Below, piece after piece: positions 196 to 16,376 of a stretch of 48,058 nucleotides of DNA. Position 1 is the stretch's first letter. Each line of letters opens with the position of its first letter. Both the position numbers and the translations under genes were made by a program. The DNA is from Anaerolineae bacterium. Lineage in GTDB: Bacteria > Chloroflexota > Anaerolineae > Aggregatilineales > Aggregatilineaceae. The stretch is taken from contig JAFGJA010000322.1 in the NCBI GenBank assembly GCA_016929355.1, positions 1-48,058 on the forward strand, in the 5' to 3' direction. A model generated the notes under the pieces. The model made no database searches. It had not been told where the DNA came from and was given only the letters and a program-made list of their open reading frames with translations.

Positions 196-229
196 GCGTT
201 TCTGTTACGCTATCTGTGGCTGTAGTATT

Positions 230-655: not shown

Positions 656-694
656 GCAATGCTTACGGGCCAGTTTGTTATAGCATTGCGTTTT
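656..694 (+). terminator. Weak terminator-like stem-loop (GCAATGCT-18 nt-AGCATTGC) followed by GTTTT
   Basis: 8-bp perfect stem at 656-663 / 682-689, then a T-run at 691-694. It lies in the AT-rich spacer between the IS fragment and the first operon gene. The loop is long, so this is a weak call. Confidence 0.2.
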
Positions 695-716
695 AGCGGC
701 GATATGGGGAACCATC

Positions 717-722
717 TATAAT
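717..722 (+). promoter_or_regulatory. Candidate -10 box (perfect TATAAT) for the plus-strand operon
   Basis: TATAAT at 717-722, 27 nt upstream of ATG 749. Only a poor -35 (TTAGCG at 693-698, 18-nt spacer). The surrounding 440-720 region is strongly AT-rich. Confidence 0.3.
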
Positions 723-748
723 TCAACATCCCGAGGTAGGAAAATTTT

Positions 749-1984
749 ATGCTGCGTTTTGTCTCATTTATCATGCTAGCAACGACATGGCTTTTAATCG
801 GGATAGCCATGCTTCTAGCAGGCGTAGTGCTAGGAAGCCTCGTGTATTATCCCTGTATCTCGACAACGGCGGGGGGGTACGACTGCCGTGAGATCAATCA
901 CATCATTGCGACAGAATGGCTGCAAGATCGCATTCCTAACGATTCATTAGATACCTATTTATTCATTGGCCCGGCATTATTTACGCTCATAGGATTTTGC
1001 GCCATTTTTGTGGCCCTTCAGATACTTGATCTAACCCTGCGCCGTCATAACCCAAACCAGGCAACCATGGCTATTGGGTTTGGTGTGTTTTTCGTGATCT
1101 TGGTCTTAACAATACGGGCTTTTCTTGGCGGGGAGATCAAAACGCGGGCCGTTGATGCGCGCCAACTTGTTTGTGCAGAAAATCTGCCGGCGAGCATAAA
1201 CATTTCAGAAGCGACAAATGAGCCAGGATGTTTGATCCCACCGGCAAATCCTGATCATCCTTTTTACACGTTCCTAAACATCGACAAAATTAACCAACTC
1301 CGGCGCGGCTTGGTGCTGTTGAGCGCCTGGATTTTGGGTTTGTCGTTGGTTCTGCTGTCCGAATCCACTCGCCCCCCGACTACCGTGCAGCACCAACTCG
1401 AACGGTATGGCGAGGATGTGAGTTGTGAGCGTTGTGGGGCTGTGCCCACTGATGGCGAAACGACACCGTTATGCATTTTATGTATGCATTATTTTGAACC
1501 GAAAGCCACCATCCACGATGCCCAGACCGAATACAAGGAAGGCGATACCATACGTCTGGATATTGAAATTACGCCCAAAGACAATATCCCGATGCGAAAT
1601 GCCGTAATCACGCTGCGCGTGGGTCAATTCTTGAACATCACAAACTACCCAACTGAAAAATCCTGGGAAGCGCGGCCTAACTACCAGGGATCAGTCTGCA
1701 CACAAGTCGAGTTTGTTGGACCAAAAGTTATCGCCACCCAACAAACTATTCCGGTAACGCTAAACGTGCATGAAAGTGTCCAACACCAACGCCGCGCCAA
1801 ACAGGCAGCGATGATTACCATTGAAGCCCACGCGACAGAATACAGCGCAATAGAAGCACAACCAATCAAAGAACACATCACACTGGTTCGCCCGCCTAGT
1901 AGACTTGAAAACATGGAACAATATATGATGAACCACGCGAAGCGGCTACGGTTCTGGCAGCCGCCGGCGGACCTATCAGAATAA
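749..1984 (+). CDS. Polytopic membrane protein with a cytoplasmic CxxC-x12-CxxC zinc-ribbon and a beta-rich C-terminal domain (hypothetical)
   Basis: ATG with a GAGGTAGGA SD-like element upstream. About 4 hydrophobic helices (FIMLATTWLLIGIAMLLAGVVLG, LFIGPALFTLIGFCAIFVAL, MAIGFGVFFVILVLTI, LVLLSAWILGLSLVLL). CERCGAVPTDGETTPLCILC at nt 1424-1483. Confidence 0.75.
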   Translation: MLRFVSFIMLATTWLLIGIAMLLAGVVLGSLVYYPCISTTAGGYDCREINHIIATEWLQDRIPNDSLDTYLFIGPALFTLIGFCAIFVALQILDLTLRRHNPNQATMAIGFGVFFVILVLTIRAFLGGEIKTRAVDARQLVCAENLPASINISEATNEPGCLIPPANPDHPFYTFLNIDKINQLRRGLVLLSAWILGLSLVLLSESTRPPTTVQHQLERYGEDVSCERCGAVPTDGETTPLCILCMHYFEPKATIHDAQTEYKEGDTIRLDIEITPKDNIPMRNAVITLRVGQFLNITNYPTEKSWEARPNYQGSVCTQVEFVGPKVIATQQTIPVTLNVHESVQHQRRAKQAAMITIEAHATEYSAIEAQPIKEHITLVRPPSRLENMEQYMMNHAKRLRFWQPPADLSE

Positions 1985-2009
1985 TGAGTGCGGGAAAGAG
2001 GAAACTTAC

Positions 2010-3140
2010 ATGAAGCGGCTATCCACGCTGCTGATCATCAGTGTTTTATTAGGAATCACAGGTTTGCAGGTTTGCCACGCGCAAGATGGGCCAGACTGTT
2101 CCACAACTTCTGATGTGCGCTGTATCGGCTTATCGCAAGTCAATATTGTTGGTGCAGAAGCCCTGTCCTTATATCCTGGTTTTCGCAATCCCATGCTTGA
2201 ACTGGACATTCAAATACGCGCCCCCGCCCCTCCAGGGATTGACACTGGGTATATTTACGTTGATACGATCAAACAATTGGGCAATCAGGCTCATGCGCTC
2301 AATCACTGCGAACTTGTAATCGTCGCTCTCTCAGACGAGGAAGATCAGTATCTTAAACAGCAAGCTATTATCTGGGATACAGACCGAGAACAACGAGTGC
2401 GTGTGTTTGCATTTTGCAAGCAGATCAATTTGCCCTATGGGGGCGACGCCAGCGCAGCGCGGATGCCATTTCCCAGTCAATCCACCACGATTTCGTTGGA
2501 TGATACCTCGCAGATAGATCAGACTCAGCTTAATACACTCACCGAACTCACCCACAAACTGATCGCGGCTGATTGTAGAGATAGTATTACGGGAGAACCG
2601 ATCACGCTCAGAAGCTTTCAAGCGCAGCTTGCCGTCTTTTTGATTTTCCATACAACGCCCGACGAAACCGATCCCGTTACTGATGCGTGGCAAAAATTTA
2701 AGGATGGCGGGCAAGTGTACGTGGATCAACAGCACGACGATTTTTTCACCTGTCTGCTCCCCGCCGTGAGCACGCCCATCCCGACGCCCACGCCGACCCT
2801 AACACCCACACCTCCCCCAACGTTGGGGCCGGATTTATTTACGGCAACACCGGAGCCACCCACACTTTTCAACCAGACCATTCCTGATACACCAGCCGGT
2901 GACATCAACCTGCTGGAATTACTGTTGGGAGCCGGAGGAGTGATTACAGCCGGGGTGGTTGTGATCGTGTTGACGGGTATGAAGCGAATGCGGCTGGCTT
3001 TGGGGGTGACTGCGCTGTTACTCGCGCTGGGCATTGCCCTTAGCATTCTCTTTCCGAATTTCTGGGAAAACGATCCGGCAGAAAACACGCTCGCACCATC
3101 GCCAACTCATACACCACAAGCCACGCCAGGGGAGAATTAA
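2010..3140 (+). CDS. Secreted protein with a Pro/Thr linker and a C-terminal double-TM anchor (hypothetical)
   Basis: AAGAGGAAA SD. Signal peptide MKRLSTLLIISVLLGITGLQVCHAQD. Linker TPIPTPTPTLTPTPPPT (2772-2822). Hydrophobic segments LLLGAGGVITAGVVVIVL and LALGVTALLLALGIALSILF. Confidence 0.75.
   Translation: MKRLSTLLIISVLLGITGLQVCHAQDGPDCSTTSDVRCIGLSQVNIVGAEALSLYPGFRNPMLELDIQIRAPAPPGIDTGYIYVDTIKQLGNQAHALNHCELVIVALSDEEDQYLKQQAIIWDTDREQRVRVFAFCKQINLPYGGDASAARMPFPSQSTTISLDDTSQIDQTQLNTLTELTHKLIAADCRDSITGEPITLRSFQAQLAVFLIFHTTPDETDPVTDAWQKFKDGGQVYVDQQHDDFFTCLLPAVSTPIPTPTPTLTPTPPPTLGPDLFTATPEPPTLFNQTIPDTPAGDINLLELLLGAGGVITAGVVVIVLTGMKRMRLALGVTALLLALGIALSILFPNFWENDPAENTLAPSPTHTPQATPGEN
2772..2822 (+). 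repeat. Pro/Thr-rich linker-coding low-complexity tract (ACN-CCN repeats)
   Basis: Encodes TPIPTPTPTLTPTPPPT. Confidence 0.85.
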
Positions 3141-3142
3141 CC

Positions 3143-5782
3143 ATGAATCGTCACATCATGGCTCTGGTCGTCATTATCCTGCTGGGCATCAGCATACTGC
3201 TTAACCTGAATTCGGCACTGGCCCAGAACGATCCCCATCCGGCGCTGCTGCTGGTCATTTTGTTAGATGATTCGAGCACCATGTCAGGCATAAATTCAGC
3301 GAACACCGTTGGCTATTCCGTCCTGACCGGGCGCGATCCATCTGATCCGGCTGACGGGCAAGGCGATGGATTATCGACAGGCACGCGCGATGAAGCGGTG
3401 CGCAGCGTGCTCTATTTGCTGGCGAACGATACGCAACAAGCGCATCAGGTGGCGATCATCCAATTCAGTTCGGGAGAAACAACACGCTGGCTCGGTGATG
3501 ACCCGGATACGCCATTCTTTTATACCATTGGTGGTCCTTCATTCAATCGCCAAACCGGATTGAATGCGATCATCAGCCAACTTGACAATCGCCCCGTTTG
3601 GGCAGGCGATTTGAATCCCGGTCCAAGCGATATTGCCACAACACTGGCTAAAGCCGAACAAGCGATTAAGGTGCGTGTCAGTCAAAATTCTGGTAAACCC
3701 GCGATTCTGCTGGTCGCCGACGATGTACCGATGGAAGCACCCTGGAGCGGCCCCGACAAAGCGAATCCCTGGAAACCATTCTCACCTGATCAATTAGTAC
3801 AGTGGACCAGCCGCTATATTCCAGCGCTGGATCAAACGCTGGATATTCTGCGTAACTATCCTGCGTACAATACAACCTGTGCCAACACAATTAACGGCCA
3901 ATCGCAAGGTATTCCAGTGGGAGTGATGGCGCTCGGTGCGGCGAATTGGATCGGCTATGATGGGACTATCGCTGAAGGCACACCCCCCGATGCCTATTAC
4001 CAGCGTATGGTTCAAAGCCTGAGCGATGCCCCCCTTTTTTACACCATTGATCCCAACCTGACACTGGATACAAACCAATTGTACGATGCGTTTCGGACAG
4101 CCAGCACAAGTTTTGTGCGCGATGTGCGCTGTATTAATGCCCAGGATATGCAGCCAACAGTCGCCAACAGCCAGGATATACAGTACACGTTGTCCGTTTC
4201 AAACTTTGATAGTCAGATTCATTTTGTGTTCGATGTATATGATCCGACAATGCAAGTAGTCCCGGAAATTACCCCGGCCCGGTCCAACACAGTCTATACG
4301 TATACTGACGCCAAAGATGCGTCCGCCTCGCGTCAGCTTTCACCAGATGGCGTATGGCGCGAAATCTGGACCTTTAACCATCAGGGGAATTGGGCAGGTG
4401 ATTGGACGATTCGTTTTCCAGGCAACACACAAATCAGGTCGATTACAGCCGAAAAAATAACGGACTCGACCAATCTAACTCTTATCCCTGATCGCAGCCA
4501 ATATGCCGTTGTAGGAGCCGAAGATATTCAGTTCACAGCCGAACTCAAAGCGGGAGATTGGCCGATCTATCATTCCGATCCGTTAATTGACCATATAGAA
4601 GCAACCGTGGCGGGCGAAACATTTCCGGTGACGTTCACGGACGATGATAAACTACTCATCCGTCCCCCGACGGGCAATCTTCCCAATGCGGGACGGCAAT
4701 CTTTTGCGGTGACAGTCTACTTCAAATCCGATGAGTTCGCACCCTGGACTCATGAAATTGCCGACTTTTTCACGTTTTCAGAAGAAATAACGCGGGGCGA
4801 CATCAGCCCTAATAATGGGGATACATGGACCTGCACACTCAGAGAGGATAGCAACGAATTCGGCCAACCGTTTACAGTTCGTTTTGTCAAACCGGAGTCT
4901 ATCAGCAGCGAGGGCGTATTTAACTATATTCGGGTGCAAGTTTACGCCGAGAATCCCGTCGAAAATCCTGCGGCAGAACCCATCGCGCGCCTGCTCTGGG
5001 ATCAATACACAGAAAACTCCACCGCATTTAAAGGCGTAATTCCGTGCGAAAAACTGACACCCAGTAACCAACAAGAGCGCATCTGGATCAAAGCCGAATT
5101 TGCCGATAATACGCCGATTTTTGCCGCGCAGGAGTGGGCTTATGTTCTGGCTCCTACGCCCACGCCACTGCCCACGCTTGTACCCACCCCTTCGATGCTG
5201 CCCACGCCTACCCCGGTTCCACCGGATCAGAAAAATATTGTTGATGAAACGACAGAATTATTCGACAGTGGCGAACCTGGCTACTGGTTGGTGTTAGCTA
5301 TCGGCAGCGCATTAGGCTTGGTCGCGGTGCTGCGCGGCGCACAGATCATACGTTGGTATCTGATGCCACTCTCGTATGTATCGTATACCTTTACCTACCA
5401 GGGGCAGCGCGAGGCTATGCGTCGTGCGCTCGTATGGTATTTGTTGGGGATGCCTTTCAAGTATTCCACGATGATTCCGCGCCACCACATGCCCAGGAAA
5501 AACCGAACGGCGGAGCAGCAGCAACCACCGGCAACACTTGAAGAATCCGCAACAGCGACACCAGATGAAACGCGATCCCAATCGACGCATCCGCAATTGC
5601 GCATCAGGGCTAATCCCGGCGAACTGGGCTTATATATTCAAGCCCCGCCCATCGGGATGATCCGGCTGGATCAACAATTGCTACAAAATCAGGAAACACG
5701 TTACGTGAATCGCAAAAAAATCACTATCCGTATTGGATCAGACTATGAGATCGTTATCCATAATCGCCGCGCCCGTTTCTAA
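3143..5782 (+). CDS. vWA-domain single-pass membrane protein (paralog D, most divergent) with a cytoplasmic FHA-like tail
   Basis: GGGGAGAA SD. Signal peptide ...LNLNSALAQND. MIDAS-like LVILLDDSSTMSG (DxSxT variant). Later ILLVADD strand. PT linker at 5153-5224. TM GYWLVLAIGSALGLVAVL. Roughly 150-aa tail ending ...ITIRIGSDYEIVIHNRRARF. Confidence 0.8.
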   Translation: MNRHIMALVVIILLGISILLNLNSALAQNDPHPALLLVILLDDSSTMSGINSANTVGYSVLTGRDPSDPADGQGDGLSTGTRDEAVRSVLYLLANDTQQAHQVAIIQFSSGETTRWLGDDPDTPFFYTIGGPSFNRQTGLNAIISQLDNRPVWAGDLNPGPSDIATTLAKAEQAIKVRVSQNSGKPAILLVADDVPMEAPWSGPDKANPWKPFSPDQLVQWTSRYIPALDQTLDILRNYPAYNTTCANTINGQSQGIPVGVMALGAANWIGYDGTIAEGTPPDAYYQRMVQSLSDAPLFYTIDPNLTLDTNQLYDAFRTASTSFVRDVRCINAQDMQPTVANSQDIQYTLSVSNFDSQIHFVFDVYDPTMQVVPEITPARSNTVYTYTDAKDASASRQLSPDGVWREIWTFNHQGNWAGDWTIRFPGNTQIRSITAEKITDSTNLTLIPDRSQYAVVGAEDIQFTAELKAGDWPIYHSDPLIDHIEATVAGETFPVTFTDDDKLLIRPPTGNLPNAGRQSFAVTVYFKSDEFAPWTHEIADFFTFSEEITRGDISPNNGDTWTCTLREDSNEFGQPFTVRFVKPESISSEGVFNYIRVQVYAENPVENPAAEPIARLLWDQYTENSTAFKGVIPCEKLTPSNQQERIWIKAEFADNTPIFAAQEWAYVLAPTPTPLPTLVPTPSMLPTPTPVPPDQKNIVDETTELFDSGEPGYWLVLAIGSALGLVAVLRGAQIIRWYLMPLSYVSYTFTYQGQREAMRRALVWYLLGMPFKYSTMIPRHHMPRKNRTAEQQQPPATLEESATATPDETRSQSTHPQLRIRANPGELGLYIQAPPIGMIRLDQQLLQNQETRYVNRKKITIRIGSDYEIVIHNRRARF
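5153..5224 (+). repeat. Pro/Thr-rich linker-coding low-complexity tract
   Basis: Encodes PTPTPLPTLVPTPSMLPTPTPVPP, immediately before the TM of vWA paralog D. Confidence 0.85.
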
Positions 5783-5803
5783 TCGCGTATCGAGGGAAAA
5801 CTT

Positions 5804-8800
5804 ATGAAAAATACCACGCCGATCAACCTACGTCCCACCTTGATCATCGGCCTGGGGGGATCCGGTTCCCGTATCGCTGTGCAACTCAAAGCGCGGTTGG
5901 AAGACGAACTAGGCAGTGATAGTAACTATCACCGGGCGATCAAAATCCTGTGTTTGGATACGGCCAATGAAAAATTTACGGCTCTCCAACCCAATCACCC
6001 CGATCGTGAACCGGTGCGCCTCGCGCCGGATCGGGAATATGTGCGGATCAGCGATGTGCCGTTATATGACTTGATGCGCAGTAAGGAAACCAATGAAGCT
6101 ATCGCCTCGATTTTCCCCGAAGTCCTGCACTCGACTCAAATCGATCAAGGGGCACAGCAGGTCCGGCGGTTGGGACGTATTGCGTTGTTTTATCACTATG
6201 GCCGGATCAAAGAAAAGATCAGCCAGGCAATCCGCGCGCTGCGGCAAATGGATGTAATGGATCGATTGGGTCCGATTGACGATGAGAAAGAACTCTATGT
6301 CGCGGATCGCCAACGACTGCGCGTGTTTGTGCTGAGTTCACTTTGTGGGGGAACCGGTGCCGGCATTTTTATCGACATCGCGTATCTGGCGCGCCATCTG
6401 GCATTGGATGCCGGAGTCCCTTCGACACGTGCGGTGGACGTGATCGGAATGCTGCTGCTGCCGGAAGCGTTTCCTGAAATCTCGACAACGGGCGGCGCAC
6501 GCATCCGGGCTAACGCCTATGCATCACTGCTTGACCTGGAATACTACAATCAAGCCACCGAAGCCGATGAAAAACTCTACCGGGTGGATTTGCCGGGTGA
6601 ACGAATCGAAGTGACGGGCAGTCCATTTTCGCTGTGCTACCTGATTAACAGCAGTGGCCCGCCCGGTACAATGCGCGGGGTGGCCGATCTCGCGCCCATG
6701 TTGGCGGACAGTCTCATGTTGATGATCACCAGCCGCATGGGTGAACAACTTGACGCCACCCTGGATAATGTGCGCGCGTCGCTCACCGTCTATCACGGTG
6801 GATACCGCGCATTTTATAGCGCGCTGGGCATGGCGCAAATCGTTTATCCTTTCGTATGGCTCAAGCAGCAATTTGGACAACGGCTCAAGCGAGAAATCAT
6901 CGAGCGGTTCATTTTGCCGCAAAATATATCCCTGCGCGACACACGCGACGCTGCCCAAAAATGGTTTAATGAGCAGCAAAACTGGATGCGGGCCGAACTT
7001 GACACTGACTTGTTATCGCTTAAGGAAGATGTGGTCAATCGTCTGAAAAATTTCGCGGAAGAAACTCACCTGTATCCTAATCCTACCGCGCAGTTGCAGA
7101 CCGAATACCGCACGTGCGTCCGCCAATTTGAACAGACTATCATCACGCAGGTGCATGATAATGCGGTGGATGTCGAACGACGCTTACGAACGCAACTCAA
7201 CCACGCAGTGGATGATTTTATTGACAAGGGCTTGACCGCAGAGCCGCCGTGCGGTCTCAGTTGGACGCTCACATGGTTGGATGATCTGGCGGCGATAATC
7301 TACAACGAGCTTGAAAACCCAAGTTATCTCGATCATAACGCCCCCTTGAGCGAACACCTGCAAAAAATCTACGCCGTCAACGCCATGCCCTTGCTTGGCG
7401 AGTGGTGGGGACGTAAGCGCAGTATTCCCAGAGCTGCGTATGATCTCAGTGACTACCTGGAAAACCGAGCGGATCGCATCGTCATCGAAAACGAAATGCG
7501 TAACATCTTTCTGAGCAGCATACGGTGGATTGAACAGCATCGTGATCAGGTCAATGCCGCGATCCAGTTCTGGGACCGCGAAAGACGCCGCAGTCAGGAA
7601 CAGGAAAAACCGCAGTACACGCTCGTGACCCAAACCGTCATTGATGAACACGAACTCAACCAACATCTTGCGGCAAAACTGCGCGAAATCCTGCCGGCAG
7701 AAGATGACCAAACCGGCCATGCGTCTCACCTGGACCTGAGAAAACAGGTCGAAAATGCCTTTAAAGATGCGACGAATGGGCAAAGTGGATTATCCCGGTC
7801 ATTGGACCTTAGCACGCGCGAGGAAATTCAGCGTGCGCTGACCCATCTCTGCATGTCGTATTATGATGCAATCACGGATCGGGGGGATGTAATCGAGCAT
7901 CTCAACGAACTCTCCCCCATTCGCCGCGAGGACATGATCCGATCCCTGGGTGATATGGCGCAACCGTTGTTGAGCTACAGTAAAGGACTGCTGCAAGCCA
8001 TTCCGCCGCGCATCATACAGGTGCTAGGAGCCAAAACGCAAAGCGCTGCCGAAGATCATATCCGTCCCCTGATTGGGGATCAGATGGACCTCAGCACAGT
8101 GGCAACACACAATCAAGCCACCACCGCCCTACTAATCACCCATCATGGCATCCCGATTTCGGCGCTTGCCAAACTTGAAACCTATCGGGGGCACTACGAA
8201 CAACTGCAAGACGAACCCAACGCAATTTTCCACCTGGACACAGAGCGCGAAAACGCGCCCTATGATCCGGGATCGTTCTACTTCGTCAATCTGGCCGATT
8301 TCCATACCTATTTCGCCAGGACGCTCGCCTATAACTGGCTGGTGCGCACCCAATACCAGCTTCGCCGCTCGGATAACCGGGTGGATTTACAGGATACCTT
8401 TGCTTTTGACAGCGCGTTTTTCAGCTATTTTTCCATTGCGATTAATCGCCAAATCACGATTATTAACAATGAGATTGAAGCGCTCGAAAACCGCATGGTA
8501 GATCGTTTTACGCTGGATGATTTCACCGTTGGCAAAACGCAGCGTCGATTAAAGCAGTTACACACCATGAACAATGAACTGCAACAGTATCTGGCAACCT
8601 GTATCCCGGCTAGAAACCTTGAAGATGGAGTATTGGTCCTCAACCGAAATGAACACGATTACGCTGATTTCCATGTCATCATGCGCCCCCCGGAAGGACG
8701 CGAACACCCCACGATCCCGGCCCAGACGTTGATTCAGACGCGAGATGCCATCTTTCGCGGGCAATCACGGCTCGTGCCGCAGTTTTTCATTGAGGCTGTC

Positions 8801-9076
8801 AACAACTATTACGCCACCCAACTCCAAACGGACCGGATCACGCTGGAAAATTTGATCAAAACGTTCCTGAGTGAACGCCGATACCGCGACTATGCACATG
8901 ACGATTCCCGCCGCCAGCAAGACTTTACCATGCGATTAAGTCAACCGGGCCAACCAAGCTATGAACTAGAACAGCGTCTTTGTGCAATTTTGAGCGTTTA
9001 CTTGCGCACCCTCAAACAAAAGGACCGGGGTCTTCGCACCAATGGTTATTGGACTCCGAGTGAGGAATTGTTATGA
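5804..9076 (+). CDS. Giant tubulin/FtsZ-like GTPase (Tubulin_2 / FtsZl-1 type), canonical nucleotide loops
   Basis: GAGGGAAAA SD. N-terminal LIIGLGGSGSRIA (T1-like, nt 5840-5872). LSSLCGGTGAGIFIDIAYL (tubulin signature GGGTGSG-like, nt 6344-6364). LLLPEAF...IRANAYASLLDLE (T5/H5-like). No TM segments. Confidence 0.8.
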   Translation: MKNTTPINLRPTLIIGLGGSGSRIAVQLKARLEDELGSDSNYHRAIKILCLDTANEKFTALQPNHPDREPVRLAPDREYVRISDVPLYDLMRSKETNEAIASIFPEVLHSTQIDQGAQQVRRLGRIALFYHYGRIKEKISQAIRALRQMDVMDRLGPIDDEKELYVADRQRLRVFVLSSLCGGTGAGIFIDIAYLARHLALDAGVPSTRAVDVIGMLLLPEAFPEISTTGGARIRANAYASLLDLEYYNQATEADEKLYRVDLPGERIEVTGSPFSLCYLINSSGPPGTMRGVADLAPMLADSLMLMITSRMGEQLDATLDNVRASLTVYHGGYRAFYSALGMAQIVYPFVWLKQQFGQRLKREIIERFILPQNISLRDTRDAAQKWFNEQQNWMRAELDTDLLSLKEDVVNRLKNFAEETHLYPNPTAQLQTEYRTCVRQFEQTIITQVHDNAVDVERRLRTQLNHAVDDFIDKGLTAEPPCGLSWTLTWLDDLAAIIYNELENPSYLDHNAPLSEHLQKIYAVNAMPLLGEWWGRKRSIPRAAYDLSDYLENRADRIVIENEMRNIFLSSIRWIEQHRDQVNAAIQFWDRERRRSQEQEKPQYTLVTQTVIDEHELNQHLAAKLREILPAEDDQTGHASHLDLRKQVENAFKDATNGQSGLSRSLDLSTREEIQRALTHLCMSYYDAITDRGDVIEHLNELSPIRREDMIRSLGDMAQPLLSYSKGLLQAIPPRIIQVLGAKTQSAAEDHIRPLIGDQMDLSTVATHNQATTALLITHHGIPISALAKLETYRGHYEQLQDEPNAIFHLDTERENAPYDPGSFYFVNLADFHTYFARTLAYNWLVRTQYQLRRSDNRVDLQDTFAFDSAFFSYFSIAINRQITIINNEIEALENRMVDRFTLDDFTVGKTQRRLKQLHTMNNELQQYLATCIPARNLEDGVLVLNRNEHDYADFHVIMRPPEGREHPTIPAQTLIQTRDAIFRGQSRLVPQFFIEAVNNYYATQLQTDRITLENLIKTFLSERRYRDYAHDDSRRQQDFTMRLSQPGQPSYELEQRLCAILSVYLRTLKQKDRGLRTNGYWTPSEELL

Positions 9077-11946
9077 GACGTTGTCTAGTTATTGGCCTGG
9101 GGGAAGACAGCCGCCCTACGCTTGAACATACTCAAAAATCCTTTGCCACAGCTAACGCCGCCAATGATTTGCGCACGTTGTGGATCACGTCTGAGAATCC
9201 GGTGGATACCGATCTAAATACGTTAACGCTATCGCTGACGCATAAAAACCTCACCCAACTCTATTATCAGCCTGAAGTGCGCGCGTGGTCAGGCCCGAAC
9301 TGGCGCGAGTGGAAAGAACAGCTTGCGTACAATCGCTTGTATGGCAAACTGGCCCTTTACTGGCATCGACGGCGCGTTGGTGAACATATCATCGCGCTCA
9401 TTAATGAGATCAACCGTGACGACAGCCAACGACTCAACCTGTATCTGGTGGCCTCACTCACCGATCCGTTTGCGAGTGGTGCGCTGCTAGATATGGCCTA
9501 CCTACTGCACCGCACAGCCTTAGCCCGCAGTGGGCGCGTTTACGGAATATTGTTAGTACCCGATACTTTCCATAAACTGTCTACCGGTGAGGCGGGTATT
9601 GATCCGCAAGAAGAACTGCGCGCCAACTGGCGTTACGCCGTTGCCTATGCCGCCTTACGCGAACTCAATTTCGTACAAAGCGCGTGGTCGTTTTACCAGA
9701 GCCAACACCCCGAACCCGTGTTTCGTATCGAAGAAACGCATGTATCGCCTTTTCAGACCGGGGATTGTTATCTGGTTGGCGGACATCTTGATCAGGCCAG
9801 GCGCGCGATTGATCTGAACGCATTGCTGGAACAAACCGGCGATTGGATCGCACTGCATACGCTTACGCCATTTGCCGATTATATTTCTGTGTCGGAAGCC
9901 AATCGCGGACTGGTCAGCAGTTTTGGTATTGTCGCCGGTCCCGCCCGCATCATGGATAACCGGGATACCCGGCTAAATGAGATGACCCAGTGCATTCTGG
10001 ACTACATGCTGCGGAATCCAAACGAGGGCAACGAAACCGCGCTGCGCGTGGATCGCTGGTTTTCACTGCCTGAAACCAATATTCGGGTAGATGAATTTGT
10101 CGAATTATTATCGCAACCCCCGCGACAAACGACAGTTTCGCCATTTGCCTTACGGCTTTCCAATCGAGCGCGGCACGAATTGGATGAACGCGACGCTATC
10201 TTTGCCAAAGCGGTTCGCATTTTGCACGAACAAGAAACCCAACTCGCCCAACACATCCAGACCCAACAACAGACCATGCTGGAAACGATTGACGAAGAAC
10301 TCACCGCATGGCGAGACCGCTATGAGGGCACATTCCCCTCAATTATCGCCCTGCATACCTATATTATCCAGCAGGCGGACAAAATCCTGCGGGCGGGGCG
10401 CACCCAACTCAACCAGATTGAGCAAGAAACATCCACCGCCGCCCGTTTGATGAAAGATTACCGCAGCCAGTTTCTCTATATTGGCAAAGGGTATCCATTC
10501 ACGCAAACGCTTGCTATTCCAGCCCTGTTAATCGTGATTCTGGTTGCGGCAGCTCTCTATATTGCGGCTCAACCGATTGCCTTACTCGCCTGGCTGCTGC
10601 TCAGTCTAACCCTACCTATCACGCTCATCATTCAATTGCAGAACCAGCATTTCCGGCGCGTGCGTAGAAATTTCATTGATGCGCAAACGCTGTTTCTAAA
10701 CCAGCAGCGCCAACTCATGATGACCAGCATTCACAGCGCGTATCAGCAACGATTGCTCGATGGCTTAGAACGCAAGTTGTCAATACCTAATGATTCGACC
10801 AGCCACACCACAAACAATCTGCGCATTGAGCATATCAGCACAGCTTGTAGAACCCTGTTGAGCCAACTGACAGATACGGACATTACGCCCAGCCCGGCAG
10901 TAGAGGAACAGATCACACCCTTACTGCCCGAAATTGCGAATCAGACCAGCACCCGATTATGGGAATTGGAACAGAAAGAACACCCGCTCACACCGGACCA
11001 TGTACAGCGCGTAATTGCCAATATCATCGAACACCATTTACGCATAGAACTGGAATCCAACGAAAAAGATCATCTTGATCAACTCGTTGCTACACAAACT
11101 GAGCACGCGCTAACATTGCTCGCCACAAATGATACCCGTATTGATGAACGACTGCGCCAACCAACGCAAAAGATCATTGGCCTTGAAGGATGGAGCAAAC
11201 AGACGATCAGTGAAATGGCGGGTGAGCAATATAACAACGCCGTTCGTCTGTTTGATCTCACCTCCGAAGAAGAAACCGAGACATACCGGGTGTGGCGCGA
11301 AGGGACTATGCAAGAACGCTGGTTCGTGACGCTGCACCTGCGCAATAATATCCCGCTACAAGCCATCTTGGACTTGAATCAATGGCAGATGGCTTATCAA
11401 AACATGTGTTATGTCCCTGAATTACAGCAAATGCAGCGCTGTTTTTTGCATCCCACACGCGCCGGAATTGCCACACCAGATATTATGCTGCCGCAAGCCA
11501 GCGAGTTTGAACACCTCCCCCTGGTCATCATGGCATTTGTTGTCCTCCTGCGTTTTAGTAATCAGATCAAACTTGAGCAAGATTTATGCCGCGCGACAGG
11601 TGTTCCCGGTGATCCGCGCGCCAACTTTGACGAGTTGTGTGGTGCGTTAGCAGAAAATCCAGATTTAGTATTTCAAACCGATCTGCGTGACTGGCTTAAT
11701 CCGCGCATGGATGCAGACCTGGCGCAGTTACGCGAAGTGTGGCAGGAATTGATGAATCCCAAACCCAGATTTTCGGAAACGTATGCGGATTGGGAAGTGT
11801 GGACCATTGAGCAAATCGACGCGCTGTTAGCCCGGCGGAGCGCCCCGCGCAGCCTGTATGCACTGGCACAGATCGTTGAAAAATTAGTGATTACACCCGA
11901 AGAAATTCGCAGCAAGCGCGCACAATATAGCGGCGTCATGCGGTAA
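9073..11946 (+). CDS. Degenerate (probably GTPase-dead) tubulin-like paralog with an internal TM hairpin
   Basis: ATGA start/stop overlap with the upstream gene. Same architecture, but the loops are eroded: CLVIGLGEDSRPT and ASLTDPFASGALLDMAYLL. Family motif YAVAYAALRELNF is retained. Two hydrophobic helices LAIPALLIVILVAAALYIAA and IALLAWLLLSLTLPITLIIQL (about nt 10510-10640). Confidence 0.65.
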   Translation: MRRCLVIGLGEDSRPTLEHTQKSFATANAANDLRTLWITSENPVDTDLNTLTLSLTHKNLTQLYYQPEVRAWSGPNWREWKEQLAYNRLYGKLALYWHRRRVGEHIIALINEINRDDSQRLNLYLVASLTDPFASGALLDMAYLLHRTALARSGRVYGILLVPDTFHKLSTGEAGIDPQEELRANWRYAVAYAALRELNFVQSAWSFYQSQHPEPVFRIEETHVSPFQTGDCYLVGGHLDQARRAIDLNALLEQTGDWIALHTLTPFADYISVSEANRGLVSSFGIVAGPARIMDNRDTRLNEMTQCILDYMLRNPNEGNETALRVDRWFSLPETNIRVDEFVELLSQPPRQTTVSPFALRLSNRARHELDERDAIFAKAVRILHEQETQLAQHIQTQQQTMLETIDEELTAWRDRYEGTFPSIIALHTYIIQQADKILRAGRTQLNQIEQETSTAARLMKDYRSQFLYIGKGYPFTQTLAIPALLIVILVAAALYIAAQPIALLAWLLLSLTLPITLIIQLQNQHFRRVRRNFIDAQTLFLNQQRQLMMTSIHSAYQQRLLDGLERKLSIPNDSTSHTTNNLRIEHISTACRTLLSQLTDTDITPSPAVEEQITPLLPEIANQTSTRLWELEQKEHPLTPDHVQRVIANIIEHHLRIELESNEKDHLDQLVATQTEHALTLLATNDTRIDERLRQPTQKIIGLEGWSKQTISEMAGEQYNNAVRLFDLTSEEETETYRVWREGTMQERWFVTLHLRNNIPLQAILDLNQWQMAYQNMCYVPELQQMQRCFLHPTRAGIATPDIMLPQASEFEHLPLVIMAFVVLLRFSNQIKLEQDLCRATGVPGDPRANFDELCGALAENPDLVFQTDLRDWLNPRMDADLAQLREVWQELMNPKPRFSETYADWEVWTIEQIDALLARRSAPRSLYALAQIVEKLVITPEEIRSKRAQYSGVMR

Positions 11947-11973
11947 GGGTGGGGAGCAGAGAGGGGTTTTACG

Positions 11974-12996
11974 TTGTCAGATTCATTTAAAATCGGGATT
12001 TGGGGAACTTCACGCGCGGGCAAAACAACATTTCTAGCGATGTTGTACCACACATTTCTTTCCCAGCACGACACCTGGAGCATCCGGGCTGAAAATGAGG
12101 CTCGCCTGTTTGTTGAAACAGCCTTTGAAGATATTTTTAGCGGGCGTTCCTTCCCTGAAAAAACCGTTCGCGCCCAACAATACCAGTACACGATCACCCA
12201 TAAATCAACCCAACAAACATTCATTCTTGAATTTCTGGATGCACCGGGCGAGTTATTTGAGATTTACTATCAGCGCAAGCGGCGCAATGAAAACGTGGTA
12301 GTTGCACAAAGCGAAACCGAACCCCAACTGGCTAATTTGAGCGCAAACGAGTTGTTTAATTATCTCGCTCAATGTGATGGGCTGCTGATATTCATTGATC
12401 CATTGTGGGAATCTAGACCGCATGGGCGGCTGACTTATGCCCAACTGCTCTACCAACTCTTTGAAGATTTACGCCTGGAACGCCCGGATAATCCCCCATT
12501 GGCGGCGTTCTGTCTGGTCAAGGTTGATGGGGTCGATGATTTGTGGGAGACTCGCTTAGATCAAAACCATGCCTGTTACCGGCATAATCCGGCACAACCG
12601 GTTGATAACTGCACCAAACACTGCCCCGTCCTGCAACACATCGGCTGGCAGTTTATGGTGAATCATCTGCCGGGGTTGCTGCCCAATGATCACGCCAAAT
12701 GCTTTACGCTTTCTTCCATTGGGCGCTTTCAAACGGAAGAAACGGACTGGCAACTTAATGTTGGGCTGGGGCACGCCTGGCGGCGCCCACTCTCGCCGCG
12801 CCCGCCCGTGATCAACATGCCGATCATCAACAACGAGCTAGCAGGCGATATTCGTGATATGCCCGTGACGGAAACATTAGAGCCAAGATCGATCAACCGG
12901 ATTGATAAAATTGCGCCCTACAACCTGCTCGCCCCGTTGCTGTGGATGTTAGATGCGCGCCTCTATGATAATGGCAACCCCAATACCATCGTGTAA
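11974..12996 (+). CDS. Small TRAFAC-class GTPase-like P-loop protein (MglA/Arf/CvnD-like motifs) with a C-terminal extension
   Basis: TTG start with GAGAGGGG upstream. G1 GIWGTSRAGKTTFL, G3 FLDAPGELF, then CDGLLIFID, G4-like CLVKVDG, G5-like TLSSIG. Confidence 0.7.
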   Translation: MSDSFKIGIWGTSRAGKTTFLAMLYHTFLSQHDTWSIRAENEARLFVETAFEDIFSGRSFPEKTVRAQQYQYTITHKSTQQTFILEFLDAPGELFEIYYQRKRRNENVVVAQSETEPQLANLSANELFNYLAQCDGLLIFIDPLWESRPHGRLTYAQLLYQLFEDLRLERPDNPPLAAFCLVKVDGVDDLWETRLDQNHACYRHNPAQPVDNCTKHCPVLQHIGWQFMVNHLPGLLPNDHAKCFTLSSIGRFQTEETDWQLNVGLGHAWRRPLSPRPPVINMPIINNELAGDIRDMPVTETLEPRSINRIDKIAPYNLLAPLLWMLDARLYDNGNPNTIV

Positions 12997-13685
12997 TAAA
13001 TGCGTCCATCACTGCCGGACGTATAGGCTACCCCAATTTCGGTGAATAGTGGATTCATCATGTTTTCCCGATGCCCTTGACTATTCCACCAACTGGTAAA
13101 GGCTTGATTCGAGTCAATCTGGAATTGGTACAACACATTTTCGCCAACGGCGCGAAAATCGTAGCCTGCCGCCTGCACCCGATCAGCCGGACGTGATCCA
13201 TCTGACCCGGCATGGTCCAAAAAGGAATTCTGCGCCATATCGTTGCTGTGACCCTGTGCTACCGAGGTCAGCACCGGGTTAATCTGCACTTCTTGTAGAC
13301 CGGCAGCCGTGCGAGCTTCATTGACTAACCGCACGATTTCGGTTTCCTGCGTGTGATCTGCGGCAAAAACGCTTGTCGGAGAAACGCCAGGGGTACGCGA
13401 TGGCCGGACAAACTGTGCCGTTTGCGTGAGCCGCAGCGCGTTGAGTTCCGCAAAGTTTGATGGCGTCATCGTGCTCGTTACCTGATCAACCACTACGGCA
13501 GAAGAAACAGTCGGGTGTTGATCACTCTCTCTTGACTCATTGAATATGAATAACCCCACTGCGGTGATACCGCCAACAAGCACCAGTAATACAATCACCG
13601 CCAGCACAATTTTTACTCGACGCTGGCGTTGTTGGCGGCGGCGCTGAAGCTCACGTTCACGTACCGATGAAATGTTGAATGTCAC
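12963..13685 (-). CDS. Membrane-anchored CAP / SCP / PR-1 (YkwD-like) domain protein
   Basis: GTG start. Arg-rich N-terminus plus TM IVLAVIVLLVLVGGITAVGLFIF. Classic CAP motifs HSNDMAQNSFLDHAGSDGSRPADRVQAAGY...GENV...WWNSQGHRENMMNPLFTEIGVAY...YYTMVLG. Confidence 0.85.
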   Translation of the reverse strand: MTFNISSVRERELQRRRQQRQRRVKIVLAVIVLLVLVGGITAVGLFIFNESRESDQHPTVSSAVVVDQVTSTMTPSNFAELNALRLTQTAQFVRPSRTPGVSPTSVFAADHTQETEIVRLVNEARTAAGLQEVQINPVLTSVAQGHSNDMAQNSFLDHAGSDGSRPADRVQAAGYDFRAVGENVLYQFQIDSNQAFTSWWNSQGHRENMMNPLFTEIGVAYTSGSDGRIYYTMVLGLPLS

Positions 13686-13703
13686 GTGTTATACGCCTAA
13701 AAC

Positions 13704-16376
13704 TTAGAATGTCATCATGCCCGCTTGCCCACCGAAACCGTAGTCATCCGGGTCTTTCAACAGATGGTACACAACACGGTCCTGGGGCATGGGTTCACCT
13801 AAATCAAAGCCCGTGCGCTGGTGAAGAGTCAGCATACTGCCGGGCGTCATCACCCGCGATTGAATGATCTGCTCACGCTGGTTCCATGCGTCAATCCGCA
13901 CCTGGCGCTGATTTGACATACGATCCGTATCACAGGTAATACGCAAGCGTGTGATCGGCGCTTCACGCGGAAGTTGGCGACGCTTTAAGGTGATGGTGTT
14001 GGAATTTTTCGCATCAAGACTGAAATGCCATATTTCATCTTTTTCATTATGAGACAAATCCATCCGCGCGATGACTAACGTGCCATGCGCCGGATGCTTC
14101 CTGCGCCGCCGTTGGCGAATAACTATGGCGGTAGTCAGTCCGATCACCAGCAGCACAAGCAACACAACGCCCGCATAAAACACATAAAGCATGGGATTAG
14201 TCACCCGCTCGACGGTCACGCGGAAATGGCTGGCCTGTGGATTAAGAACATAACGATCCTGCAATTCGCCCTGCATCGTAACTTCAAGATGATACGTACC
14301 TTTGGGGAGATCGCTCACGCTGGTGTAGTACTGTCCGGGTTGGGGACCTGTATTGAAAACCAGATCGCGCACTTCACCCGATTTGTCATCGAACAATTGC
14401 ACCGTCAACACCGGCGAGCCAGCAGGATCAGCCAATGGGGGCACAGCGATCAGTGTGTTATCATCATCCAGGCGCGTTTCAAAGACAATGTCCAGGTCCG
14501 TTGCAGTTAACGGCGGAAAACCTTCTGTCACGTTTTGTTCGGTATTCGGGGCCGGTTCCAGCACAAAAAGGCTAATCATGATGCTGGGCAGCACGCTCAC
14601 CGGCCCAACACGCACAGAGCCAATGGGCGCACTCGATTGTGCGGACACATCCAGATAGAGCGAGCCATTTGTCATCGCTTCGGTCCAAGTGATCCCGGCG
14701 GTATACTGACCATCACCATCAGGATCGGTAAATTCAACTGGCACGATCTCTGTATCCAGCGCATCAACGACTCGGGCGGTGATCTGAATAGCTGAATCTT
14801 GCACGATAGTGCCCGCATCATCCACCACACGCGCGGTTAATTGCACCTCCTCACCGACCAGATAGGCATCAGCCGGAAAATCATCTACTTGCAAGATCAA
14901 TTCACTTACAGTGAACGTATTGAGATCGGATTGGTCAAAAATAATATAATCTTCCCCGGTGGGCAATGTAACACTTGCCGTCAATCCCAGGGTATAGGTC
15001 CCATTCAGGTCTGCCGGATAAACAGTGCTATATGCACCGGGTTGCGTGGATGTAAGCGGCAAGCGCGTTTCAGTCCCATCTGGCAGAGTTAGACGCGCTT
15101 CGACAGCAAGGTCATACGGCGGTGGATAACTGTTGAGTGGAGTTTGGGTCGTGGCGTCAGTCAATGTCACCGTCAACGGCACATCATCGTACTGCCGGAA
15201 TGACCCGCCTGTCACATCTGCCGTTACATCAAGTGGAATCAATTCAAGATAGATGTCAATTCGGTCATTTTGCGACCCGACTTCAAATACCCAATCACCC
15301 GGCACAGGGTTAACAATCGTCCACACTTCAATGGGGCGATCCTGATTGCTGATCGTTACGTCGGGATCGTTAGCCGCCAATGGCAGACCGTTGGATTGTG
15401 TGATCGACAGAACCCCCGGCGAATTACTCGACTTAAACAGCGAGACACGCATTAATCGCTGGTAAGGTGGCACAAAAACAGTATTTATGCCGGGAACAAG
15501 CTGTTGGGCATCGGTCAATCCGCCGCTGGTTTGGTCTTCGCCTGTCGAGGAAACCACCTGGGCCAGAATGCGATAAAACTGCACACCAACCTGCTGATTT
15601 GTTTCCACGAGCGTAGCGCGTTCGGGCAGACCAACAACAGATTGCCAGTCAGCGCTGCGCGTTTGCCAGACATCGCCCGTCGCATCAAGAGCCAGAACAT
15701 AAATCTGGTAGGCGAGTGGAGGAAAGGCACGCTGCACCAGATCGTTCACCGTATCCATGTGCTGCTGCTGGCCGAGGGCGCTTTCACACGAAAAAAAGTT
15801 CGGGCCGGATACGACACAGGGTTGCCCATCCGTGAACAAAATGATCACGCGCAAATGCGACTGATTCGGGTCAGGGGGCAGCGTGTCAAACATGGTTTGG
15901 GCCATCTCAAACGCCGATACAAAGTTAGTATTCCCCAGATTCACTGACCCAAACGTATTGGCTGAAAGTTGGTCGAGAATACCCTGGCGCGTGTTATCCC
16001 ATTCCATCTGGGTAGGTGCGACCTCTGTCCAGTTGAGCGTAACCACCGCATCATCGCCAAAGTTAATGACGGCGGCGCGCACAGTCAGATCGGGCGCAAC
16101 AAGCAGCCGATACTCACCAAGCGTATCCAGCGCATACTGCACCGCTTCAAACCGCAGTTGCAATGGATCGGTTGCTTCGCGGTCAGGATAACCAAAATCT
16201 GCGCCGCCCATGCTGCCGCTTTGATCGACCAAAAACAGCAGGTCCAGACCAGTATAGGCGGGTGATGTATCTTGGGCCTGGGCTAAACTACATACTCCCC
16301 CCTCTACCAGCCAGATCACAATCACCAACAGGCTGCTTATCCATCGTTTATTCATCGTTGTCATCGTCCTCGTCAT
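13704..16376 (-). CDS. vWA-domain single-pass membrane protein (paralog A) with Ig-like repeats and a conserved cytoplasmic tail
   Basis: Three in-frame ATGs at 16376, 16364 and 16355. The last gives an ideal signal peptide MNKRWISSLLVIVIWLVEGGVCSLAQAQD. MIDAS LLFLVDQSGSMGG. FGSVNLGNT, FTDGQPC and VPPYQ motifs shared with paralogs B and C. TM YAGVVLLVLLVIGLTTAIVI, then RRRRKHPAHGTLVI tail ending ...MMTF. Confidence 0.85.
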   Translation of the reverse strand: MTRTMTTMNKRWISSLLVIVIWLVEGGVCSLAQAQDTSPAYTGLDLLFLVDQSGSMGGADFGYPDREATDPLQLRFEAVQYALDTLGEYRLLVAPDLTVRAAVINFGDDAVVTLNWTEVAPTQMEWDNTRQGILDQLSANTFGSVNLGNTNFVSAFEMAQTMFDTLPPDPNQSHLRVIILFTDGQPCVVSGPNFFSCESALGQQQHMDTVNDLVQRAFPPLAYQIYVLALDATGDVWQTRSADWQSVVGLPERATLVETNQQVGVQFYRILAQVVSSTGEDQTSGGLTDAQQLVPGINTVFVPPYQRLMRVSLFKSSNSPGVLSITQSNGLPLAANDPDVTISNQDRPIEVWTIVNPVPGDWVFEVGSQNDRIDIYLELIPLDVTADVTGGSFRQYDDVPLTVTLTDATTQTPLNSYPPPYDLAVEARLTLPDGTETRLPLTSTQPGAYSTVYPADLNGTYTLGLTASVTLPTGEDYIIFDQSDLNTFTVSELILQVDDFPADAYLVGEEVQLTARVVDDAGTIVQDSAIQITARVVDALDTEIVPVEFTDPDGDGQYTAGITWTEAMTNGSLYLDVSAQSSAPIGSVRVGPVSVLPSIMISLFVLEPAPNTEQNVTEGFPPLTATDLDIVFETRLDDDNTLIAVPPLADPAGSPVLTVQLFDDKSGEVRDLVFNTGPQPGQYYTSVSDLPKGTYHLEVTMQGELQDRYVLNPQASHFRVTVERVTNPMLYVFYAGVVLLVLLVIGLTTAIVIRQRRRRKHPAHGTLVIARMDLSHNEKDEIWHFSLDAKNSNTITLKRRQLPREAPITRLRITCDTDRMSNQRQVRIDAWNQREQIIQSRVMTPGSMLTLHQRTGFDLGEPMPQDRVVYHLLKDPDDYGFGGQAGMMTF

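Follow-up and report, generated by a model that had tools for sequence, protein, structure and literature searches.

What does a tubulin-like protein without nucleotide loops do beside a paralog that has them? The question is raised by a 48,058-nucleotide (nt) stretch of DNA (the window; contig JAFGJA010000322.1) from an Anaerolineae bacterium of the phylum Chloroflexota, in which the gene of a canonical tubulin-like protein is directly followed by that of a second one, here called the variant, whose glycine-rich loops are replaced. The original prediction, made from the window alone, likened the two to alpha/beta-tubulin and to BtubA/B. We find that they are ancient full-length paralogs from the FtsZ-like-1 (FtsZl1; Pfam Tubulin_2) branch of the tubulin/FtsZ superfamily, and that their genes are co-transcribed and mostly translationally coupled. 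Judging from its sequence, the variant represents a small conserved subfamily under constraint and not an eroded copy; its gene is a long intact open reading frame (ORF) under selection that carries a membrane anchor.

Nucleotide loops, membrane hairpin and fold of the paralogs

The two genes belong to a series of closely spaced ORFs on the forward strand (Table 1). At their junction, TTATGAGAC, the ATG of the second gene has TGA in common with the first gene, so that, as predicted, the variant starts inside the stop codon of its neighbour. In the variant frame no start codon but this ATG occurs from the upstream stop up to the conserved N-terminus; the 4-nt overlap is therefore forced. A promoter and terminator scan of positions 1-14000 gave results at chance level, with no terminators at the gene junctions.

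All five tubulin-like domains of the window match PF13809 (Tubulin_2) above its gathering cut-off of 27 bits. The scores are 183.6 bits for the canonical protein (E 8.6e-54), 142.1 bits for a second canonical copy at 23488 (E 4e-41), 61.5 bits for a fusion protein at 17825-23377 (E 1e-16), 41.6 bits for a further copy at 36188 (E 1e-10) and 37.8 bits for the variant (E 1.8e-9). All 14 variant-family members match this profile as well (best E 6e-13). The classical Tubulin/FtsZ profile PF00091 was matched, weakly and in the region of the T4 signature, by 36 of 41 canonical relatives versus none of the 14 variant proteins.

The canonical product, which starts ...LIIGLGGSGSR and reads SSLCGGTGAG further in, has an N-terminal tubulin/FtsZ-fold domain (amino acids (aa) 1-370) and a long stalk of helices, and further comprises a C-terminal alpha/beta domain plus helices. 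In an alignment of 41 canonical orthologs and relatives (A3; 31-47% identity, better conserved than the variant family), the invariant residues include those of the T1-type and T4-type loops given in Table 1, together with D52, T53, G116, A117, R121, G124, R125, D191, N237, D321 and N322. A candidate T7-like loop, a tentative assignment, is located between the long core helix and the short helix and strand that come next (AlphaFold2 (AF2) H293-320 / H324-328 / E338-347). Its G313, D321 and N322 are invariant in the 41 sequences, and 15 of the 17 profiled orthologs of the canonical partner have D317; it resembles NVDFADVR, the T7 sequence of FtsZ, a synergy loop whose acidic catalytic residues complete the active site of the neighbouring subunit. 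As far as its sequence tells, the upstream protein retains every conserved nucleotide-loop block of its family. A sequence search of its N-terminal domain against PDB chains gave no match, and a profile search gave coiled-coil noise only.

The variant product starts MRRCLVIGLGEDSRP and reads SLTDPFASGA further in. When the five window domains were aligned with MAFFT, GLGGSG of the canonical protein and GLGEDS of the variant fell in the same columns, as did CGGTGAG and DPFASGA; the motif pairs predicted for the copy at 36188 (GIGRIG, DELVGSA) and for the fusion (GLGNPG, DDVGSGA) were also recovered in this alignment. In a combined column-by-column alignment, canonical G19, G21, D52-T53, G116-A117-Q118-Q119, G182-G183-T184-G185, E221, N237 and D317/D321-N322 have either been substituted or deleted in the variant. 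The putative T7/H8 segment is shorter by about 13 residues, with D-x-x-x-D-N, which fits T7, replaced or deleted. The nucleotide pocket is expected to be lined by the second half of T1, D-T (which fits T2), G-A-Q-Q (which fits T3), G-G-T-G of T4, E221 and N237; the T2, T3 and T7 assignments come from the order of the blocks relative to AF2 strands and helices and from FtsZ motifs, not from a residue-level superposition. The residues kept in the variant (G16, G18, R121, G124, S186, G187, D191, A193, Y194, P220 and P274-F275) look structural. These motifs suggest that the variant has lost GTP binding. The FtsZl1 family was defined by a GGGTG(S/T)G-type loop (Makarova & Koonin 2010, PMC2875224), which is present in the canonical protein (CGGTGAG) and in the copy at 23488 (AGGTGAG) and absent from the variant (DPFASGA), the copy at 36188 (DELVGSA) and the fusion (DDVGSGA). 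The variant is therefore a member of FtsZl1 by homology and fold, not by catalytic signature.

To call these loops eroded or destroyed, as the original prediction did, does not describe what has happened to them. A word-indexed search for relatives of the variant found 13 homologs at 24-31% identity. In the resulting alignment of 14 variant-family sequences (A2), 28 columns are invariant, among them D131-P132-F133-A134-S135-G136, and further invariant blocks read YAALRELNF, SPFxTGD, HPTRxGxAxPD and FSExYADWE, the last two in a conserved C-terminal domain. When 1.84 billion representatives were searched exhaustively with a profile, 327 matches fell below 1e-3 and 51 below 1e-30, a subfamily of about 50 clusters. 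A third search for homologs, made with the broader alignment A4, yielded hardly anything further, and A4 itself was too diverse for a pattern to be drawn from it. Nearly all full-length members of the variant family read [D/E/N][P/A/S]FASG at the T4 position, including a distant subclade with EPFASG or NPFASG, and intact ORFs of ~900-1050 aa occur in ~40 cluster representatives. The nearest relatives all come from metagenome-assembled genomes of Anaerolineae. The glycine-rich loop has thus been replaced by an invariant DPFASG at 24-31% overall identity, which argues for a new constrained function and not for decay.

The variant also differs by a predicted two-helix membrane hairpin, which was already noticed in the original prediction and is borne out here. 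The hydrophobic stretch is interrupted by Q-P and has basic residues on either side, so both ends should be cytoplasmic. A hydrophobic hairpin is found at the same place in every full-length member of the family (~aa 440-590), the distant subclade included, and in the hhalign alignment the canonical family has a gap where it lies. In the AF2 model it forms the turn, or tip, of a long helical stalk. The variant has kept a long intact ORF with a membrane anchor, as had been pointed out, and the T4-position motif and the hairpin occur throughout the subfamily.

Profile-profile alignment of the variant and canonical families with hhalign gave a probability of 99.8 over 665 columns at ~16% identity, indicating that the families are paralogous along most of their length. 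In a crude neighbour-joining tree of the N-terminal domains (Poisson distances), each clade was monophyletic in 200 of 200 bootstraps; with the ~16% identity, this suggests that the duplication is old. The mean within-clade distance was 1.19 for the variant versus 0.70 for the canonical clade (1.7x), and the variant thus evolves faster than its canonical partner. A split of all non-GGTG from GGTG copies appeared in 162 of 200 bootstraps, possibly through long-branch or motif-column effects.

The AF2 model of the canonical protein has a predicted local distance difference test (pLDDT) score of 86.1 and a predicted template modelling (TM) score of 0.76; that of the variant has a pLDDT of 82.9, mostly >90 in the N-terminal domain. 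Both models comprise an alpha/beta N-terminal domain to ~aa 350, helices of 40-70 residues and a mixed C-terminal part. Compared with the PDB by Foldseek, both had CetZ, FtsZ, tubulin and TubZ at the top, with probability 1.00 and target TM scores of 0.3-0.5. Canonical matches included 4b45 (CetZ2), 6rvn, 4dxd and 5zue (0.41-0.50), and variant matches 3v3t (TubZ), 3zid (CetZ), 4u39 and 2r6r (0.41-0.46). The variant is thus predicted by modelling to retain the tubulin/FtsZ fold. After the core helix both models have a single strand and not the four-stranded C-terminal domain of FtsZ, which agrees with the 2010 description of the family, in which T6-H7 and the C-terminal domain were not recognisable (PMC2875224).

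The stalks of both models weakly resemble ClyA-type toxins in Foldseek (SmhB, AhlB and MakA; TM 0.19-0.38), and both also have weak matches to stalks of the bacterial dynamin-like protein (BDLP) and MxA, which for the canonical model are BDLP 2j69 and MxA 5gtm (TM 0.15-0.18). The bacterial dynamin-like helical domain PF21808 was found in one of the 14 variant proteins (E 3.6e-5). We rejected homology of the stalk to BDLP or ClyA-type toxins, since TM scores of 0.15-0.38 and a Pfam match in one of 14 proteins amount to similarity of shape only. BDLP is laid out like the window proteins, with a GTPase head and a long antiparallel stalk of helices that has a hydrophobic, membrane-inserting tip, whereas the head in the window is of the tubulin/FtsZ fold and not dynamin.

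The gene pair and the DO-GTPase across loci

Contigs carrying relatives were labelled L001-L027, and pairing was counted where the flanking DNA suffices. The variant has a canonical gene immediately upstream and on its own strand in the window as well as in L001, L003, L005, L006, L007, L009, L010, L012, L013, L014, L017-L022 and L024-L027; some of these are near-duplicates, leaving at least 17 distinct loci. With ~20 independent contigs showing the pair, its order and a tight junction, the arrangement is more than chance. Counted between the final base of the canonical stop and the start of the variant, the distance is -4 nt (ATGA) in the window, L006, L009 and L019, and -1 nt (TAATG or TGATG) in L013 and L014. 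Longer overlaps occur in L007 (-8 nt) and L001 (-19 nt), short gaps in L005, L003 and L010 (+3, +11 and +15 nt, respectively) and longer gaps in L012 and L017 (+48 and +67 nt, respectively). An exception to the intact gene is L018, a contig of 3x coverage in which the variant is broken into three ORFs. The predicted pairing and coupling of canonical and degenerate paralogs is thus upheld for these two genes by the junctions across loci; it doesn't extend to the other copies, as this is the only adjacent and coupled canonical/degenerate pair.

A third partner, absent from the original prediction, is conserved beside the pair. Downstream of the variant lies a gene for a DO-GTPase, a P-loop GTPase of the TRAFAC class, which matches PF19993 (DO-GTPase2, 38.8 bits) and PF19975 (DO-GTPase1, 33.4 bits), both above 27 bits, and has the motifs GTSRAGKT, DAPGE (with the Walker-B glutamate) and VKVD. 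An ortholog of this gene comes next after the variant in most loci, often with a 4-nt overlap, and the order canonical, variant, DO-GTPase recurs in ~20 Anaerolineae loci, with genes mostly overlapping or near-touching. In two loci the variant and the DO-GTPase are fused into one protein (L013, 13255-17325, 1356 aa; L014, 13219-17247, P0148, 1342 aa). The C-terminal 340 aa of these fusions match the window DO-GTPase in phmmer at 5e-41 (L013) and 2e-41 (L014) and have the P-loop GTPQVGKT, the fused variants carry DPFASG or EPFASG, and a Pfam scan of P0148 found Tubulin_2 plus DO-GTPase2. Since gene fusion is classical evidence of joint action, this suggests that the variant and the DO-GTPase act together.

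DO-GTPases are known from the GAP1-N2 'GTPase-centric' conflict systems, some of which include tubulin and vWA genes, with GAP1 and FNIII domains as hallmarks (Kaur, Burroughs, Iyer & Aravind 2020, PMC7159879). The DO-GTPase beside the variant puts the window among such GTPase-centric systems. Neither GAP1 nor FNIII was found in Pfam scans of 20 window ORFs (E <=0.01) or of 14 variant proteins (E <=1). GAP1 was likewise not found in the 1427-aa protein of the window and three counterparts, comprising two phmmer-confirmed orthologs (L001 and L014) and a positional one (L017) (E <=1), in a copy of Pfam not checked for GAP1 models. The idea that the variant is itself a GAP1 protein was rejected, as no profile matched. 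The position adjacent or fused to the DO-GTPase, which GAP1 holds in the systems of Kaur et al., is taken here by the variant tubulin.

Possible roles of the variant

We propose that the variant is a membrane-embedded pseudo-GTPase that docks the active paralog and is coupled to a P-loop GTPase switch within a vWA/FtsZl1 system, and we put the probability of this at about 0.5. The variant would be independent of nucleotide and fixed in the cytoplasmic membrane with both of its large domains in the cytoplasm, and it could not stimulate hydrolysis in a neighbour. It would bind the soluble, GTP-binding paralog through its retained tubulin-fold face, the homologous stalk or both, with coupled translation setting a stoichiometry of ~1:1, and would serve as a membrane anchor and as a nucleator or cap for FtsZl1 assembly. 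The associated DO-GTPase switch would gate this engagement. Each of the other FtsZl1 paralogs would be partnered with, or fused to, a type-I membrane protein carrying an extracellular vWA domain, and these partners may link sensing on the outside to a GTP-dependent assembly on the inner side of the membrane. A more specific form of the proposal, conceivable if doubtful, is that the variant is an integral-membrane pseudo-tubulin whose T7-less face caps the canonical GTP site in a stable heterodimer with a non-hydrolysing, N-site-like interface. Availability of the variant would be switched by the P-loop GTPase, and the resulting hybrid of tubulin-fold and P-loop machinery would nucleate a membrane polymer upon extracellular vWA sensing in multicellular bacteria.

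Several observations weigh against a loop-less docking subunit acting with a DO-GTPase. The variant still has the GxG of T1 and the S-G of T4, with GxGxxG in the distant subclade, and a remodelled pocket that binds some ligand would be compatible with the residues it keeps. The T7 assignment is tentative, and the D321 of the T7-like loop is Ala in the paralog at 23488. The alignment used for the AF2 model of the variant mixed in canonical sequences, which may bias the model toward the canonical fold. The searched literature contains no experiments on FtsZl1, and polymerisation of the family is putative. Two loci also depart from the common arrangement. In L008 (1-7595) an intact variant (P0146) is preceded by 407 nt that are free of ORFs up to the contig end and followed by unrelated genes for UDP-glucose dehydrogenase, MscS and FHA proteins; it is the only locus seen with neither a canonical partner nor a DO-GTPase beside the variant, and this orphan may have been relocated or may be a chimera of the assembly. 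In L017 (1-19612, GCA_039029935.1) the pair, whose variant is of the distant NPFASG type, has no adjacent DO-GTPase; its neighbours are an FHA protein, an FHA-kinase, a 1530-aa PP2C/zinc-ribbon protein and a TniB-like P-loop protein.

The arrangement of the genes would also suit an alternating heteropolymer like that of alpha/beta-tubulin or BtubA/B, in which one subunit in two would be membrane-inserted. That the genes are adjacent and translationally coupled favours a 1:1 stoichiometry, and both proteins are predicted to retain the tubulin/FtsZ fold. The GTP bound at the intradimer N-site of tubulin is not hydrolysed, and a T7-less subunit placed over the GTP of the canonical protein would likewise be non-hydrolysing. 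However, both subunits of alpha/beta-tubulin and both of BtubA/B bind GTP, while the variant has neither the residues equivalent to T1, T2, T3 and T4 nor the putative T7/H8 segment, so that a filament of alternating subunits would have no catalytic interface whatever. The 1.7-fold faster evolution of the variant would moreover be unusual for co-polymer subunits that share two interfaces each, and the putative status of FtsZl1 polymerisation counts against this model in particular. We regard such a filament as unlikely, and the analogy drawn in the original prediction falls in its strict form. What is left of it is a loose likeness, namely a paralog pair with one silent interface.

The absence of the pocket and of the T7-like residues is also what would be expected of a poison for filament ends. 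The variant might then be a dominant-negative protein or decoy, a dead paralog that sequesters or poisons active FtsZl1 or lures an invader's protein directed at it, so that the system stays off until released by the DO-GTPase or a vWA sensor. Inactive versions of enzymes are recurrent in these conflict systems, where decoy and dominant-negative roles have been proposed (Kaur et al. 2020, PMC7159879), and faster evolution of the variant fits a component in an arms race. A decoy, though, has no need for a conserved hairpin, for the C-terminal domain with HPTRxGxAxPD and FSExYADWE or for fusion to a GTPase, the invariance of DPFASG speaks for a specific structural role, and no PADLOC defence model matches any component. 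This, too, we consider improbable.

The invariant D-P-F-A-S-G, with the GxG, the S-G, D140 and A142-Y143 also kept, is more than a scaffold needs. This could point to a re-tooled sensor, in which the remodelled pocket (GLG...DPFASG) would bind not GTP but some other ligand, for instance a signal derived from nucleotides, a peptide or the head group of a lipid, and signal to the canonical protein or the DO-GTPase. A calcineurin-like phosphoesterase is a conserved component of the locus, and action on nucleotides has been predicted in related systems (PMC7159879); in the window, however, its gene is not adjacent to the pair. Pro and Asp in a phosphate-binding loop would disfavour nucleotides, and the sequence points to no particular ligand, leaving a sensor of this kind quite unlikely in our view.

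Finally, that the variant is a functionless decaying duplicate, whether a pseudogene in progress or an artefact in the annotation of a recent tandem duplicate, may be suggested by its low Pfam score, the loss of all glycine-rich loops and the gene in three ORFs in L018, but is barely credible: the 28 invariant columns at 24-31% identity and the intact ORFs in ~40 clusters led us to reject neutral erosion, the 16% identity between clades that are both monophyletic (200 of 200) led us to reject a recent duplicate, and the AF2 model is confident.

The wider locus and its relation to known systems

Table 1. Features of the window discussed in the text (positions in nt of the whole stretch; AF2, AlphaFold2 model)
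Feature	Position	Strand	Remarks
ORF of the closely spaced series	749-1984	+	
ORF of the closely spaced series	2010-3140	+	
Cryptic vWA-type type-I membrane protein, 879 aa	3143-5782	+	Always directly upstream of canonical FtsZl1
Canonical FtsZl1 (Pfam Tubulin_2), 1090 aa	5804-9076	+	PF13809, AF2, Foldseek
T1-type loop GLGGSG, canonical protein	5849-5866	+	G18, G19, G21 invariant in 41 orthologs/relatives
T4-type tubulin signature CGGTGAG, canonical protein	6344-6364	+	C181, G182, G183, T184, G185, G187 invariant
Candidate T7-like loop GEQLDATLDNVR, canonical protein	6740-6775	+	Tentative assignment
ATGA start/stop overlap of the paralogs	9073-9076	+	AGGA 8 nt upstream
Variant FtsZl1 paralog, 957 aa	9073-11946	+	'[D/E/N]PFASG + transmembrane hairpin' subfamily; PF13809, hhalign, AF2, Foldseek
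T1-equivalent GLGEDS, variant	9094-9111	+	First two glycines retained, next two gone
DPFASG in place of GGTG[S/A]G at T4 position, variant	9463-9480	+	Invariant in 14/14 A2 sequences
Predicted two-helix membrane hairpin, variant aa 476-523	10498-10641	+	Kyte-Doolittle up to 2.81; AF2 helices 476-497, 501-569
DO-GTPase, 340 aa	11974-12996	+	27 nt downstream of variant
CAP-domain protein, membrane-anchored	12963-13685		End of operon
vWA proteins	13704-16376, 27265-29994, 39412-42480	-	
vWA-transmembrane-PD40-transmembrane-FtsZl1 fusion, 1850 aa (GLGNPG, DDVGSGA)	17825-23377	-	Membrane-bound
Second canonical FtsZl1, 1247 aa (GLGGSG, AGGTGAG)	23488-27231	-	vWA gene 27265-29994 before, fusion copy after
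Probable lipoprotein, 527 aa	30022-31605	-	N-terminal hydrophobic segment ends in LLAAC, lipobox-like
Third non-canonical FtsZl1, 1074 aa (GIGRIG, DELVGSA)	36188-39412	-	Soluble
TGATG overlap of 36188 start with stop of weak-vWA gene 39412-42480	39410-39414	-	
Soluble protein without recognisable domain and calcineurin-like phosphoesterase	42489-47677	-	Conserved gene pair

The window forms one system of five FtsZl1 paralogs and at least five vWA-type type-I membrane proteins, together with the calcineurin-like phosphoesterase, the CAP-domain protein and several membrane proteins without an assigned family. Four vWA genes are found at 13704, 27265 and 39412 and within 17825, and a cryptic one at 3143. 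The product of the latter had no match in a Pfam scan and has an N-terminal signal or anchor, a transmembrane segment at aa 715-733 and a cytoplasmic tail of ~145 aa. A profile of nine orthologs matched the vWA profile of the locus in hhalign with a probability of 98.2 (E 3e-14, 409 columns), in an alignment that takes in DDSxT, a motif resembling the metal-ion-dependent adhesion site. Every FtsZl1 of the window except the variant comes after a vWA-type membrane gene (3143 before 5804, 27265 before 23488, 39412 before 36188) or is fused to one (17825-23377), and vWA-Tubulin_2 fusions recur in other loci.

The copies at 23488 and 36188, suggested as a second active/inactive pair, are not paired by gene order. 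The former, with the fusion copy 111 nt behind it in the same order as in L007 (15757-21666), is thus part of a second neighbour pair in which a soluble canonical protein precedes a membrane-bound non-canonical one; the ortholog of the fusion copy in L003 reads GVGESG and DDGGS. The copy at 36188 is coupled to a vWA gene. Its sole available ortholog (L001) is likewise non-canonical (GLGPTG, DLGQAAGS), and a metagenome scan for its relatives found none.

Other features of the locus were observed in passing. The three vWA proteins in Table 1 have a signal or anchor, an extracellular vWA domain and a single transmembrane segment near the C-terminus, followed by a cytoplasmic tail of 120-140 aa with an invariant RRR..P..G...L...N (alignment A7), a candidate docking site for FtsZl1. 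The gene pair for a soluble protein of ~1430-1470 aa and the phosphoesterase also occurs in L001 (14208-19494) and L014 (1-4861); it lies directly after the DO-GTPase in L001 and at the distant end of the operon on the opposite strand in the window. The position of the ~1430-1470-aa protein suggests a GAP1 analogue, although it has no GAP1 profile match. In L003 and L004 the fusion ortholog (L003, 19873-22700) combines CAP, thioredoxin and Tricorn_N/PD40 in one protein of ~1850-1880 aa; in the window CAP is encoded as a separate gene. Searches of eight components with PADLOC and NCBIfam gave no matches.

Much of this context has precedents. The FtsZl1 family, its vWA and GTPase context and the DO-GTPase-tubulin systems are already published (PMC2875224, PMC7159879). 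FtsZl1 proteins were described as having an FtsZ-like domain at the N-terminus, then an extended region that is helical or coiled-coil and an alpha-helical region at the C-terminus, in operons with membrane proteins that carry a vWA domain and with a diverged P-loop GTPase, and one archaeal member is fused to transmembrane segments, as N-terminal helices (PMC2875224). The window pair shares PF13809, the helical layout and the vWA and P-loop GTPase partners with this description, but the variant differs in having no signature loop. With the systems of Kaur et al. (PMC7159879) the window shares a DO-GTPase with the Walker-B glutamate, tubulins with C-terminal helical regions and extracellular vWA domains; those systems include a Firmicutes version with two tubulin genes, are membrane-proximal and occur in filamentous or multicellular bacteria including Chloroflexi. 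Their tubulin theme, however, was restricted to Firmicutes and Actinobacteria, while loci of the window type are from Anaerolineae and the window has no detected GAP1 or FNIII. A term search of both papers found no canonical/variant pair, loop-less DPFASG subfamily, stalk-tip hairpin or variant-DO-GTPase fusion. A literature search, with subscription journals outside its coverage and hence no proof of absence, found no later work on the family.

Alpha/beta-tubulin and BtubA/BtubB are, like the window proteins, paralogous tubulin-fold pairs with one interface that should be silent in catalysis, and the predicted fold matches tubulin and BtubA/B chains with Foldseek probabilities of 0.99-1.00. 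They differ in that no tubulin subunit is an integral membrane protein and none lacks all nucleotide-loop residues as the variant does, and FtsZl1 proteins are without the C-terminal domain of tubulin and FtsZ and have stalks of 600-700 aa. In its proposed role of tethering or nucleating a GTP-dependent polymer, and in that only, the variant may be likened to gamma-tubulin, FtsA, ZipA and SepF. Gamma-tubulin is also a paralog of the polymer subunit, and gamma-TuSC is among the Foldseek matches of the variant, but gamma-tubulin binds GTP and is not inserted in the membrane; FtsA, ZipA and SepF have unrelated folds.

FtsZl1 is among the most divergent branches of the tubulin/FtsZ superfamily, and the module of three genes, for a paralog with GTP loops, a membrane-bound DPFASG paralog and a P-loop GTPase, is a minimal system to express and test. 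It would add a prokaryotic pair of active and pseudo-active tubulin-fold proteins and bears on how heterotypic pairs arise through duplication and loss of catalysis, as well as on transmembrane signalling by the large vWA/GTPase systems of filamentous bacteria.

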